A stretch of 64,000 nucleotides of DNA from Enterobacter phage phiEap-3: the sequence record KT321315.1. One strand, given 5' to 3'. Positions 3,068 to 31,516 of this stretch are shown piece by piece. Below the pieces are notes generated by a model. That model ran no database searches and had not been told where the DNA came from. It saw only the letters and a program-made list of their open reading frames with translations. The translations under genes and the position numbers were made by a program. The first letter of the stretch is position 1, and the number at the start of each line of letters is the position of its first letter.

Positions 3068-3105
3068 TTTAGAATCTCCTTTGCTTGGTACAAAACCAAT
3101 ATAGC

Positions 3106-7909: not shown

Positions 7910-8469
7910 TCTTTTACGTCATCAACAATATCATAATGGTTGATGTATGGTAAAGCAATTTTTAAATTACTCGCGTCTTGAATGTTGCGTAAGAAACGAG
8001 TAGGAGAAAGAAGACACAACCGCTCGGATCCGTTGTTTCCTTTAGCGGCAAATGATAGGGTTTCTCCCCCGTCAATCTTCATATCAACAGAAATCGTTTT
8101 GAATTCTGGTGCGTATGACGTGATTTTGCCGTTGTCTCTCGGTGTACTATAGAAACATACACTTTGTGGGACATTATAACGGTCTGTTTCAATGTACATG
8201 TAATCGCCGTCAGTCATTCCCCACACAGTGTAAAGGGATCCGGTATAGTCACCAAAGGAATTTTTAAAATCTTCCTTCGTGGTGTATCCCAGAGAGCGCA
8301 ATTGCATAAGCTGGTTATGTTGTTCGATTGCGTCGGCTTTTTGTTGTTCCTGTACTTGCGCATCAATCGTTTCTTGCCAGGAATTATACGCATAGTAACC
8401 CACAACAGCGATTACAGCCATAACCCCTACAGCTTTCCAGATTTTAGCGTCTTCGTTTTTGTTACTCAT
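7873..8469 (-). CDS. membrane-anchored hypothetical protein
   Basis: 198 aa; N-terminal TM helix AVGVMAVIAVVGYYAY followed by a Q/E-rich coiled coil. Confidence 0.55.
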   Translation of the reverse strand: MSNKNEDAKIWKAVGVMAVIAVVGYYAYNSWQETIDAQVQEQQKADAIEQHNQLMQLRSLGYTTKEDFKNSFGDYTGSLYTVWGMTDGDYMYIETDRYNVPQSVCFYSTPRDNGKITSYAPEFKTISVDMKIDGGETLSFAAKGNNGSERLCLLSPTRFLRNIQDASNLKIALPYINHYDIVDDVKEWNVSQIGVKFK

Positions 8470-9195: not shown

Positions 9196-9459
9196 TTAGT
9201 AGGTATCTAGTTTATACATTTTGCACCAGTTCATGAATTCTTCGAAAGTCTGAGTATTAACACGTTTTTCCTTCTTCACTTTCTTAGTGATTACAGGACG
9301 GTTAGTAAAACGTTTTTGCATTTTCACAGTGATTGCTACTTTATCGCCCAGGTCTTCAACCTTTTCAACCAGCGCCCACTGAGAACCAATTTCAGCACCG
9401 AAAGATAAACCAACAATCTCACCTGCTTTAACATTTGCTGCATATTTTACTTTAACCAT
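9196..9459 (-). CDS. hypothetical protein
   Basis: ORF-track start 9525 lies inside a terminator hairpin; start moved to MVKVKY, which follows a GAAAGGAA Shine-Dalgarno. Confidence 0.5.
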   Translation of the reverse strand: MVKVKYAANVKAGEIVGLSFGAEIGSQWALVEKVEDLGDKVAITVKMQKRFTNRPVITKKVKKEKRVNTQTFEEFMNWCKMYKLDTY

Positions 9460-9850: not shown

Positions 9851-10071
9851 TTACCCCTGTTTACTGATTGACGGTGTAACGTTTTAGGCACAACCGGATT
9901 TCGGTACGGTTTGACTTTGTGGATCACGGGTTCTTCCCCAACCAAATTAGGAAATTGGTTATTCCATTCCATCGAAAACGGATAAGGTTGTGACTTGAAT
10001 TCTTCGATCACACAGTTTACTAAACGATCGCCAATTACACCCAAAGCCGCCCCAATAATCGCTATACGCAT
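9847..10071 (-). CDS. hypothetical protein
   Basis: 74 aa ORF. Confidence 0.45.
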   Translation of the reverse strand: MRIAIIGAALGVIGDRLVNCVIEEFKSQPYPFSMEWNNQFPNLVGEEPVIHKVKPYRNPVVPKTLHRQSVNRGK

Positions 10072-24509: not shown

Positions 24510-24547
24510 AATATATCCCTCTCAATGGTGTACACCCAATATAACAA

Positions 24548-24576
24548 AGCCCCTGCACGAATGCAAGGGCTTTTTG
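24548..24576. terminator. long-stem hairpin with CGAA loop flanked by A-run and T-run
   Basis: AGCCCCTGCACGAATGCAAGGGCTTTTTG, downstream of regA. Confidence 0.5.
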
Positions 24577-29748: not shown

Positions 29749-30684
29749 TCAAAAATCACTCAGTTTTTCGAACATACGGGAAAGTTTGTTATCCATGAAG
29801 TAACGTTCCATTTTGGCTTTACTTCCGGATTTTGGAGTATTATACGCTTCAATAATCGAATTTTCAATATCTTTTGGTATAAATTCGAAATCGCGTAGTT
29901 CCTCGTTTTCTTTGTAACGAGCGGCCCATTCAGGGGTCATCAACGTTGTCGGGTCGTCTGCCTCCAGCCATGCCTCTAACTCAGAGGATTTTACCGCTGG
30001 GGCGCGTTCTCCTTCAACCTTCGTCACAATATAATCATTTCTAATTTTAATGCAAGCGATACTATCTTTTTTATCGCCTTTGATATTTTTGTATCGCAGA
30101 TCGTTACGTGGCGAACCGTACTTAGGCGTTACCCATTTTTTCTGGGGAGGCGACCATTGACGAACACCGTTATATTTCTGTAGTTGTGTAAAGTCGCTAT
30201 CAGCGGAAACCACTAATACTCGTCTACCTTCACCAACAGCTTTTTTCGTAACAACAGCAATTATATCATCAGCTTCCGCGAATTCAACCTTTAATCCAAG
30301 ATAAGGCATATTCTGGCGGATTTCTTCGAACACCGGATTCAGGAAGTTGTTCAAACGATCCCAATCCCATTCTGATTCTTCGTGTTCGATCTGACGACGT
30401 TTTTTGTAGTACCAGGCTTTTTGCCTACGCCAGTAATTTCTGTCATCGAAGGCAATCACGATTTCTGGATACTCACCTTTAAATTTTACAACGTTAAACC
30501 GTAAAGTGTCAAGCACCAGATGACGAATCATTTCGATCGTGATGGATGCTTGTTCCTTTGGTTTGAAGTTGTTCATCAGTGTAGCGATGGAAATGTTAGA
30601 GATATCGATGACCATAGTATCATCGGGTTCCCCTTCATCTTGCATCAGCTTGTTCAAGTTAAACATGCTTGCAAAACTGCTCAT
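29749..30684 (-). CDS. rnh: RNase H / FEN-family 5'-3' exonuclease
   Basis: 311 aa; aligns with T4 RNase H (SADSDFTQLQKY..V.QWSP, IKGDKKD). Confidence 0.88.
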   Translation of the reverse strand: MSSFASMFNLNKLMQDEGEPDDTMVIDISNISIATLMNNFKPKEQASITIEMIRHLVLDTLRFNVVKFKGEYPEIVIAFDDRNYWRRQKAWYYKKRRQIEHEESEWDWDRLNNFLNPVFEEIRQNMPYLGLKVEFAEADDIIAVVTKKAVGEGRRVLVVSADSDFTQLQKYNGVRQWSPPQKKWVTPKYGSPRNDLRYKNIKGDKKDSIACIKIRNDYIVTKVEGERAPAVKSSELEAWLEADDPTTLMTPEWAARYKENEELRDFEFIPKDIENSIIEAYNTPKSGSKAKMERYFMDNKLSRMFEKLSDF

Positions 30685-30764
30685 ACATACCTCAATTTTT
30701 CAAAGAACGGGGTTATTGTAGTAACTTACGAAATGAAGTCAATACAAAAGACCATAAAAATTTT

Positions 30765-30906
30765 GATCAATAATACTTGATCTGATCAAATTTATGATCT
30801 ATAATTTATTAATTAATAATTATTTTACTACAATGATCATTGTAGGTCAAGTACTAAAATCAATAAATTTTATATAATTTAGATCTGATCTATAGATCAT
30901 TAGATC
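30765..30906. promoter_or_regulatory. GATC cluster (9 sites in about 140 bp) in the AT-rich divergent intergenic region, with several TATAAT-like boxes
   Basis: GATC at about 30765, 30779, 30784, 30796, 30835, 30882, 30887, 30895 and 30903; repeated TGATCT/AGATCT/GATCTA units; sits between divergent rnh (-) and 55 (+). Confidence 0.6.
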
Positions 30907-30988
30907 TACTTTAACCTTAAATAATATAGAATGAAATTTGATTTTGTCTACAGTTATTATATAATATTCTTAACTTCAAAGAGGAAAT

Positions 30989-31516
30989 ATGAATACTATG
31001 ACTAAAGAAACAACCAATATCTACGCAGACAATGAAAAATTATACCCTATCCTCTGTGCATGGAAAAAGCAAATCGCCGAAACAGGTGATCGCAAAATGC
31101 CTAATGAGTTAGGTGCTGCTATTATGGATATTGCAAACGGGCTATCACGTCGTTACAACTTCAACCGTTATTCCGAAGATTGGAAAATGGATATGATTGA
31201 TGACGGAATTTCCGCTGCAATCTCAGGACTGCATAACTTCGATGAAACTCGTTATACCAACGTTTACGGTTACATTAACAAAGCATGTTGGCAAGCATTC
31301 GTAACACGTATTCTGTACGAGAAAAAAGAGAACGCGAAGAAATATAAATTCTTCCTTGAGCACGTTTACGACTGCGAAGATTCAGATATGGTTAGTATTG
31401 CAGACGAAGGTTTCATTCAAGATCTACATGACAAACTATCTCAGTACGAGGCTTCCGCCACCAAAACCAAAGACAAGGAAGCGGAAGTATTCCCAACATT
31501 GGAAGATTTTCTATGA
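30989..31516 (+). CDS. 55: late-promoter sigma factor
   Basis: 175 aa; SGLHNFDETRYTN and neighbouring blocks match T4 gp55. Confidence 0.88.
   Translation: MNTMTKETTNIYADNEKLYPILCAWKKQIAETGDRKMPNELGAAIMDIANGLSRRYNFNRYSEDWKMDMIDDGISAAISGLHNFDETRYTNVYGYINKACWQAFVTRILYEKKENAKKYKFFLEHVYDCEDSDMVSIADEGFIQDLHDKLSQYEASATKTKDKEAEVFPTLEDFL

Follow-up and report, generated by a model that had tools for sequence, protein, structure and literature searches.

Dense groups of the Dam target GATC are already known from origins and promoters. The origin oriC carries 11 GATC sites in about 245 bp, the pac site of phage P1 holds two sets (4 + 3) of TGATCA/G hexamers flanking a cut site whose cleavage is controlled by Dam, and IS10 pIN, P1 cre and the dnaA promoter are controlled through the difference between full and hemi-methylation. 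For phages of the T4 type, we know of no sequence-defined origins beyond T4 and its closest relatives. Here we describe a cluster of GATC sites between the rnh gene and gene 55 of Enterobacter phage phiEap-3 (sequence record KT321315.1), analysed in a stretch of 64,000 nucleotides that is called the window below; coordinates are those of the window unless another record is named. The cluster is the core of an A+T-rich non-coding cassette of about 170 bp that lies between conserved rnh and gene 55 promoters and has two relatives elsewhere in the genome. We propose that these cassettes may be hubs of early transcription, and probable origins, whose state is read through Dam methylation.

Two groups of described systems come closest. 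oriC and the Vibrio cholerae origins oriI and oriII are GATC-dense and are read by SeqA and methylation (PMC2865523). In T4, the promoter of oriF and oriG is followed by an A+T-rich unwinding element, and the transcript forms an R-loop that primes replication, with no specific sequence being needed; oriE, oriF and oriG lie near switches of transcription direction and nucleotide skew, and oriE is reported with an early promoter, so that a middle promoter is not universal (PMC3016281). According to the same review, no local sequence motif is common to the T4 origins, and the rules of origin use count as an open question (PMC3016281). The locus described here resembles both groups. It shares with oriC, the dnaA promoter and V. 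cholerae oriI and oriII a high GATC density in A+T-rich non-coding DNA, and with the T4 origins, which belong to the same virus family, promoter-like sites that face very A+T-rich DNA. The searched literature contains no published description of these GATC clusters, and apparently neither a three-copy GATC cassette at origin-like positions in a virulent phage of the T4 type nor the exchange of the entire cassette for a structured hairpin element in the sister genus has been described before.

A family of three GATC-rich cassettes

The intergenic region between rnh and gene 55, here termed R1, comprises 304 bp with 22% G+C (30685-30988, no strand), as delimited by the open reading frames (ORFs) and by the annotation of the related phages KP27 and KP15. 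The sequence-only reading of this DNA had counted nine GATC sites within 30765-30906, and all nine were recovered, with starts at 30765, 30779, 30784, 30796, 30835, 30882, 30887, 30895 and 30903, in 142 bp of 19-20% G+C. This stretch holds 28 G+C in total, 18 of which fall within the GATC sites themselves. The surrounding hexamers are TGATCA and TGATCT (three each), AGATCT (two) and AGATCA (one). Shuffling of the 304-bp region gave a mean of 0.56 GATC and a maximum of 5 when mononucleotide composition was kept (n = 20,000), and a mean of 1.09 and a maximum of 6 when dinucleotides were preserved (n = 5,000); none of the 25,000 shuffles reached nine sites and none exceeded 6. The Poisson probability of the cluster for one 142-bp window at the genome-wide GATC rate is 6e-7, the composition of R1 predicts fewer sites by a factor of about 10 or more, and the next-richest separate 150-bp windows of the 64-kb stretch contain four sites. 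The shuffles thus bear out the claim that the cluster is non-random and far above chance. The baseline offered for that claim, one site per 256 bp, was wrong in both directions, the genome rate being 1 per 154 bp and the expectation from the local composition of R1 about 1 per 500-600 bp.

A genome-wide over-representation of GATC was also considered and rejected. The excess over shuffles (423 against 272) vanishes under a second-order Markov expectation, with an observed/expected ratio of 0.99, and is therefore a trinucleotide effect. Two other 4-bp palindromes of the KP27 genome, CTAG (observed/expected 0.40) and AGCT (0.59), are strongly avoided where GATC is neutral.

Over the 1.9 kb that surrounds the cluster, more than 100 Klebsiella phages share 99.3-99.7% identity with the window; they belong to Slopekvirus, a genus of T4-like Straboviridae that includes KP15, KP27, Miro and Matisse. 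Window positions equal KP27 (HQ918180.1) positions minus 460. The whole KP27 genome (174 kb) was used to read two further regions that lie outside the window: R2, between gp3 and KP27_206 (KP27 100437-100805), and R3, between gp24 and uvsY (KP27 134943-135255). In the whole KP27 genome, R1, R2 and R3 are the only segments with at most 25% G+C over 150 bp, and all three are GATC-dense, with 9, 9 and 7 sites when merged low-G+C segments are counted, or 9, 10 and 5 (24 in total) within the intergenic coordinates alone. They are related to one another. R1 matches R2 and R3 by blastn at 72-75% over 120-180 bp (E 6e-13 to 4e-8), the strings TGATCTATAAT and TTAGATCTGATC are shared, and R2 holds two tandem R1-like units.

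Within these regions it is GATC in particular that is enriched. It occurs 24 times in R1-R3, whereas the 23 remaining permutations of the four bases occur 0-5 times each, and 50 other moderately A+T-rich stretches (about 30% G+C, 8.2 kb in total) have 0.32 GATC per 100 bp against 1.7-2.3 in R1-R3, which makes the site about 7-fold rarer there. Together with the shuffles, these two counts rule out that the enrichment is a by-product of composition. The comparison with other A+T-rich intergenic regions, which the sequence-only reading had proposed as a possible refutation, found a comparable density in the related copies R2 and R3 and not in ordinary A+T-rich DNA. Since only these two relatives match the density of R1, the case for selection on GATC is strengthened, and the cluster is a property of a three-member element family, not of A+T-rich DNA generally.

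Conservation in related phages, the other comparison that had been suggested, was found within the genus: R1 is 100% identical in most of 111 Slopekvirus records, the surrounding 1.9 kb being typically 99.3-99.5% identical. In phage KMI7, the GATC at 30779 is lost (now GATT) and another is gained at 30750 (GACC to GATC), 28 bp away. The R3 region of four phages shows an indel and several substitutions in the A+T spacers with 5 of 5 GATCs kept, a pattern that is not significant alone. Scans of IMG/VR and metagenomes with gp55 and the cassette pattern, made for more divergent relatives in which GATC conservation could be followed, yielded only identical Slopekvirus copies or regions of the type found in Pseudotevenvirus.

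Organization of the cassette and its Dam sites

When R1 is aligned with the corresponding regions of RB43, EC-W2, Invicta, Phynn and a metagenome relative, the flanks are homologous and the centre is not. This centre is the Slopekvirus-specific cassette (approximately 30746-30916, no strand), which is A+T-rich and contains all nine GATCs. The box TTAAATAATATAGA (30917-30930, no strand), kept between both genera, marks its right edge. The left GATC sub-cluster (30765-30799, no strand) has four sites (30765, 30779, 30784 and 30796) and includes the 13-bp palindrome TTGATCtGATCAA at 30777-30789, the string ATGATCTATAAT, and TGATCTATAAT, which recurs in R2. The right sub-cluster (30882-30906, no strand) also has four sites (30882, 30887, 30895 and 30903) and includes TTAGATCTGATC, which likewise recurs in R2, the 12-bp palindrome GATCTATAGATC at 30887-30898 and TAGATCTA at 30901-30908. 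Between them lies a perfect 18-bp palindrome, CTACAAT-GATC-ATTGTAG (30828-30845, no strand), with its GATC at 30835. This palindrome is the centre (near 30836) of an imperfect dyad of about 112 bp (30779-30890), in which blastn aligns the sequence with itself in inverted orientation at 73% over 112 bp. Modelled as single-stranded DNA, the cassette has a better fold than shuffled versions (z = -3.5); only a 7-bp central stem is robust in the fold ensemble, and the 18-bp palindrome is the sole element of the centroid DNA fold.

The several TATAAT-like boxes noticed earlier correspond to four sigma-70-like sites, on which a consensus scan and the KP27 record agree. Two of them lie outside the cassette: the rnh-proximal promoter TTGACT-16-TACAAT (30715-30742, - strand), conserved in Pseudotevenvirus, and the gene 55-proximal promoter TTGATT-16-TATAAT (30938-30965, + strand), which has a counterpart there. 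The other two are promoter-like sites within the cassette. TTGATC-17-TATAAT (30777-30805, + strand) contains three GATCs, of which the first is part of the -35 hexamer, the second falls in the spacer and the third directly adjoins the -10 hexamer, and TTGACC-17-TAAAAT (30822-30850, - strand) has the 18-bp palindrome as its spacer. These inner sites face each other, with predicted starts at about 30812 (+) and 30815 (-); judged from their coordinates, RNA polymerase could not occupy both together. Each of them faces 60-100 bp of DNA with at most 20% G+C, a feature of T4-type origins that is present in the sequence.

The resemblance to oriC extends to GATC density. No DnaA box (TTATCCACA or TTWTNCACA) is found in 30685-30988, even with one mismatch, and R1 lacks IHF and Fis consensus sites and any detectable direct-repeat (iteron) family. 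It contains no tandem array of the GATC-led 13-mers (GATCTnTTnTTTT) and has one near match, GATCTATAATTTA at 30796, with at most two mismatches. An origin of the oriC/DnaA type was rejected on the missing DnaA boxes and tandem 13-mers, and an iteron origin of the V. cholerae oriII/RctB type, in which identical 11-12-mers with GATC adjoin an initiator gene, on the missing repeat family and on the neighbouring ORFs, which show no Rep-like or initiator-like families. The biology differs as well, given that a virulent phage passes through many replication rounds per infection and has no obvious need for once-per-cycle control. A P1-type pac site was rejected too. Two groups of four GATCs do flank a centre over about 140 bp, and the phage does encode a Dam, but only 3 of 9 sites are TGATCA, the terminase is of the T4 type (gp16/gp17) with no PacA/PacB, there is no IHF site, and the element is present in three copies. 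The analogies to oriC and to P1 pac that the sequence-only reading had drawn therefore fail, the former on DnaA boxes and 13-mers, the latter on hexamer, pacase and copy number. Rfam covariance models gave no match at E <= 1 across 30550-31100, and the search for a hidden gene in R1 returned only low-complexity ORFs of 20-34 amino acids and antisense ORFs overlapping rnh.

KP27 encodes a Dam of its own, KP27_267, which matches the Pfam D12 methyltransferase family (E = 1e-34) and shares 56% identity with T4 Dam; a C5-cytosine methyltransferase gene is present as well. The GATC sites in R1 are very probably Dam targets, and because the phage supplies a Dam, methylation would not depend on the host alone. 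The earlier proposal of methylation by host Dam, in DNA with apparently unmodified cytosine, thus holds for the target and needs amending on both other points: host Dam would not act alone, and cytosine may not be wholly unmodified in this phage. The paper on KP15 and KP27 reports a resistance to restriction enzymes that is left unexplained, and lists methyltransferases and predicted promoters with no mention of GATC clusters or origins (PMC5219037). Dam orthologues 79-88% identical are found in Pseudotevenvirus; on the strength of these orthologues and of the likeness to T4 Dam, the sequence comparison indicates that Dam is ancestral and only the clusters are new. A tie between the presence of Dam and that of the clusters was rejected, as Pseudotevenvirus has the orthologous enzyme without them.

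The record of Klebsiella phage CPRSB (OM971649.1 131000-171000; locus L023) is unusual in that most of its genes are split into fragments. Relative to the window, five of the nine GATCs of the cluster are altered in it, mostly to AATC. Over 37.5 kb its substitutions are 2.7-fold enriched in GATC, and 32 of the 51 GATC substitutions replace the G of position 1 by A or, as the complement, the C of position 4 by T. This pattern probably reflects long-read miscalling at N6-methyladenine, and would then be a hint of methylation rather than real divergence.

The corresponding cassette in Pseudotevenvirus

The sister genus Pseudotevenvirus (RB43, RB16, Miller, CfP1, Invicta, EC-W2) has about 75% DNA identity in the flanking genes, with the gene arrangement unchanged. 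The gene-proximal promoters and the box TTAAATAATATAGA align between the two genera; the central 170 bp or so is replaced in Pseudotevenvirus by unrelated sequence with just 1-2 GATC. This sequence is a cassette in its own right. It measures about 150-160 bp and occurs in three places per genome in nearly all of 63 matching records, of which none (0/63) annotates it. In the representatives read, the three places are rnh/55, gp3/orf and gp24/uvsY, the same sites as R1-R3; examples are L003:1256-1412 (RB43, between the divergent rnh and 55), L034:473-631 (CfP1, between the divergent gp3 and orf) and L033:696-854 (RB43, between gp24 and uvsY in the same direction). The outer arms of the cassette are invariant, G+C-rich inverted repeats (GAGCGAAGCGAA / TTCGCTTCGCTC). 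Inside them, a stem of about 10 bp closes a conserved A+T loop, TTTATATTTTATATATAGAGAAAA, some 30 nt in length. The sequence of the inner stem differs between species while its pairing is kept, with compensatory changes at six pairs, and this covariation points to selection. The element appears to be previously undescribed.

The two cassettes can be compared feature by feature. Both are present in three copies at the same syntenic positions and have an A+T-rich core with dyad symmetry, and the RB43 inner stem, CTACA...TGTAG, resembles the R1 palindrome CTACAAT...ATTGTAG. By contrast, their sequences are unrelated, and the Pseudotevenvirus cassette has G+C-rich outer arms and a conserved loop and is GATC-poor. 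Two sister lineages thus carry three-copy cassettes of different sequence in the same places, which suggests that the three sites do one specific job. This shared three-site synteny is the strongest argument for such a job, of which the GATC-rich version would be the Slopekvirus solution.

Possible functions of the three sites

The explanation that we favour, with a probability of about 0.4, is that each of the three cassettes combines a T4-style promoter with a DNA-unwinding element, and would act as a hub of early transcription and probably as a transcription-primed (R-loop) origin, with its state read through Dam methylation. The sigma-70 promoters within the cassette would fire into easily melted DNA, and the GATCs, as targets of the T4-like phage Dam and of host Dam, would make the replication history of the DNA readable. 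On an injected genome the sites would be fully methylated, and after passage of the first fork they would be hemimethylated. At that stage, binding of SeqA, which the host family possesses, and/or an altered promoter strength would silence or re-time the element, and origin re-firing and early divergent transcription would then yield to recombination-dependent replication and late expression. Parts of this scheme are inferred, namely methylation of the sites, activity of the promoters within the cassette, the formation there of R-loops or origins, and the role of SeqA or RNA polymerase as reader. A more far-reaching version, in which both genera carry three modular, sequence-defined origin cassettes and firing in Slopekvirus is gated by the Dam state via SeqA or another factor, is put forward tentatively and is more doubtful than the general scheme. 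The original suggestion of an origin or a methylation-controlled promoter is upheld insofar as the cluster is real, lies at the main divergence point and is a probable Dam target; its functional part is argued here from anatomy and synteny.

The positions of the cassettes agree with T4 to a degree. In T4, the annotation puts oriF at the 5' end of uvsY, whose transcript serves as the primer, and R3 directly precedes uvsY. Much as oriE, oriF and oriG are near points where transcription and skew switch, R1 and R2 are at divergence points, and in KP27 these two lie at the two deep minima of the cumulative GC skew and at the two major strand-switch points.

Several observations weigh against this explanation. 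The skew minima are equally explained by gene orientation, and the remaining T4 origins are loosely placed relative to the cassettes, oriG being 2.2 kb from rnh inside gene 34, a gene located elsewhere here, and oriE 3.4 kb from gene 3, inside gene 5. T4 oriF and oriG use a MotA-dependent middle promoter, whereas neither R1 nor R3 has a MotA box (WWWTGCTTNA), the only one among R1-R3 being in R2 (KP27 100510). T4 origins share no sequence among themselves and carry 0-1 GATC within 200 bp on either side, unlike R1-R3, which are related and GATC-dense, and Pseudotevenvirus has the orthologous Dam and no GATC cluster; given T4 and the sister genus, GATC is not needed for the general function of the three sites. 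Promoter matches are cheap in DNA of 80% A+T (7 found against 3.8 expected). The GATC spacings (14, 5, 12, 39, 47, 5, 8 and 8) show no clean SeqA phasing, even though spacings of 12-14, 21 and 31 bp are present among the sites of R1. The searched literature contains no methylome, transcription-start or marker-frequency data for Slopekvirus.

The alternative that survives best, unlikely as we take it to be, is a methylation-sensitive divergent promoter switch without origin function, through which expression of the flanking rnh-dsbA-33-59-32, 55-47-46 and uvsY would depend on full versus hemi-methylation. In IS10 pIN, IS50, P1 cre, Mu mom and dnaA P2, as in a predicted promoter of R1, GATC lies in or abuts the -35 or -10 hexamer. 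Among the predicted cassette promoters, GATCs are found in or beside the -35, the spacer, the -10 and the start position. The + strand site of the cassette has one GATC in its -35 (TTGATC) and one abutting its -10 (ATGATC-TATAAT), the TGATCTATAAT module occurs twice in R2, GATC stands 0-3 nt upstream of the -10 in two R3 promoters, and in R2 and R3 it also stands just upstream of a -35 (AGATCTTGAAT). None of the approximately 35 promoters annotated elsewhere in KP27 contains GATC, which rules the site out as a general trait of this phage's promoters and sets those of R1-R3 apart as a distinct class; the neighbours of R1 and R3 are regulators of replication, recombination and late transcription. 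What such a switch explains poorly is the number and placing of the sites. Known Dam-controlled promoters use one to three GATCs and not nine; R1 has many more than any known example, most of them outside promoter hexamers, and several, such as the four at 30882-30906, have no convincing promoter around them. The conserved gene-proximal promoters are outside the cassette and free of GATC, and the extreme A+T content, the dyad symmetry and the GATC-poor hairpin cassette of the sister genus are left unexplained.

The hub and origin reading also has to be set against an operator array, in which a sequence-specific protein of phage or host would recognise GATC as the core of an extended palindrome, for example T-T/A-A-GATC-T-A/T-A, with Dam methylation playing an incidental or at most modulatory part. 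The flanks of the 24 sites in R1-R3 lean towards T-(T/A)-A-GATC-T-(A/T)-A, with a bias beyond background (T at -3 in 15/24, A at +2 in 15/24, C at -1 in 0/24). Perfect palindromes are TTAGATCTAA in R2 and TAGATCTA, GATCTATAGATC and TTGATCtGATCAA in R1, and the swapping of the cassette as a unit between genera is what a co-evolving, lineage-specific binding protein would lead one to expect. A candidate binder was not found, however: orf206 and the two small ORFs after gene 55 match only families of unknown function, and DsbA, which belongs to the expected DsbA family, is shared with the sister genus. The flanks of the sites are heterogeneous (T or A on either side), their spacing is irregular, and no iteron family was detected in R1. 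An operator array is in our view a less likely explanation than the promoter switch.

Slightly less likely again is the absence of any dedicated function, the cassettes being GATC-containing A+T-rich repeats left over from a promoter module that was mobile or duplicated, copied into three sites and retained through low divergence and gene conversion. Modules are shared among R1-R3 and R2 contains two R1-like units, so the GATCs have fewer than 24 independent origins, and conservation is weak evidence among Slopekvirus genomes that are more than 99% alike. Against this stand the many non-homologous contexts and spacings in which GATC occurs, the turnover in KMI7 with the GATC count maintained, and the conservation of R1, which is at least that of the neighbouring coding DNA. 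A three-copy, covarying cassette at the same sites in a genus at about 75% DNA identity is likewise hard to reconcile with a neutral repeat.

The weakest alternative, a structural or recombination element at which a cruciform or cleavage (by endonuclease VII or terminase) would give ends for recombination-dependent replication or pac-like packaging, is improbable, for although the imperfect palindrome of about 112 bp around the perfect 18-bp one, the fold z of -3.5, the long inverted repeat with compensatory changes in the inner stem of the sister-genus cassette and the 4 + 1 + 4 layout over 142 bp, superficially recalling P1 pac, would suit it, the phage has T4-type gp16/gp17 terminase and headful packaging genes with no PacA/PacB, the element is present in three copies and not one, P1-type hexamers (TGATCA/G) make up 3 of the 9 sites with no IHF site, and the fold ensemble gives robust support to nothing beyond the 7-bp central stem.

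If the more far-reaching version is correct, virulent T4-like phages would have their first example of methylation-licensed origins or origin-promoter switches, and origin cassettes would be swappable wholesale between sister lineages while the flanking promoters stay. To our knowledge, T4 dam mutants have no clear phenotype; were the GATCs read through methylation, the Dam that T-even-like phages widely encode would gain a role in cis-regulation. The three-copy cassette offers concrete, testable candidates for origins or control elements in a large group of Klebsiella, Enterobacter, Citrobacter and Cronobacter phages used in therapy work. As repeats that break assemblies and attract GATC-specific long-read errors, the cassettes are also relevant to genome finishing and phage engineering, where they would serve as natural landmarks and, being possibly essential, are best not deleted.

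The gene context agrees with the names given to the two neighbours at the outset and with the placing of the region between two divergent blocks. The rnh gene (RNase H / 5'-3' exonuclease; 29749-30684, - strand) is the first of the leftward block rnh-dsbA-33-59-32, and gene 55 (late sigma factor; 30989-31516, + strand) is the first of the rightward block 55-orf-orf-47-46. Leftward of R1, every gene back to rIIA is on the - strand (gp32, gp59, gp33, dsbA and rnh being the nearest), and those to the right, namely 55, two small ORFs, 47, 46 and onwards, are on the + strand as far as about KP27 56.9 kb. An imperfect inverted repeat of 42 nt (TGACGGGGTAA... / ...TTACCCCGTCA) delimits R2. Directly downstream of R2, between genes 3 and 2, lies KP27_206 (orf206; L010:806-1594), an ORF of 262 amino acids assigned to phrog_7322 and without a Pfam match; a similarly sized hypothetical ORF occupies this position in Pseudotevenvirus CfP1, and T4 has no gene there.

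Several sequence records end close to the cassettes. The metagenome contig ERZ1026872 NODE-38 starts inside the right GATC sub-cluster, at about 30890, and the partial GenBank records phiKp_19, phiKp_15, W8-3, W8-4 and W9-2 end in or near R1-R3. These ends are most likely assembly breaks at A+T-rich repeats and not physical genome ends.

Most annotated promoters of KP27 follow another plan, AAAAAGCCC-TTGCAT/TTGACT-stem-loop-GGGGCTTT-g-TATATT, then ...ATCGAAACG, in which a G+C-rich hairpin, often annotated as a terminator too, fills the spacer between -35 and -10. Examples are found in the window at about 2638-2666, 8408-8436, 9290-9318, 10041-10070 and 24538-24566 (in KP27 at 3098, 8868, 9750, 10501 and 24998), with many more genome-wide. 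They resemble the promoter-early stem-loops reported for RB43-type phages. The T4 late-promoter octamer TATAAATA occurs only 12 times in KP27, counting both strands. Inspection by eye also revealed that, at their left borders, R1, R2 and R3 each have a -10-like hexamer followed at once by the box ACGGGG (CCCCGT on the - strand; 30707-30712, and in KP27, L010:485-490 and L010:34955-34960), in the forms TACAAT-AA-CCCCGT, TATATT-A-CCCCGT and TATTAT-CCCCGT. The box may be a shared start or discriminator motif of leftward promoters.

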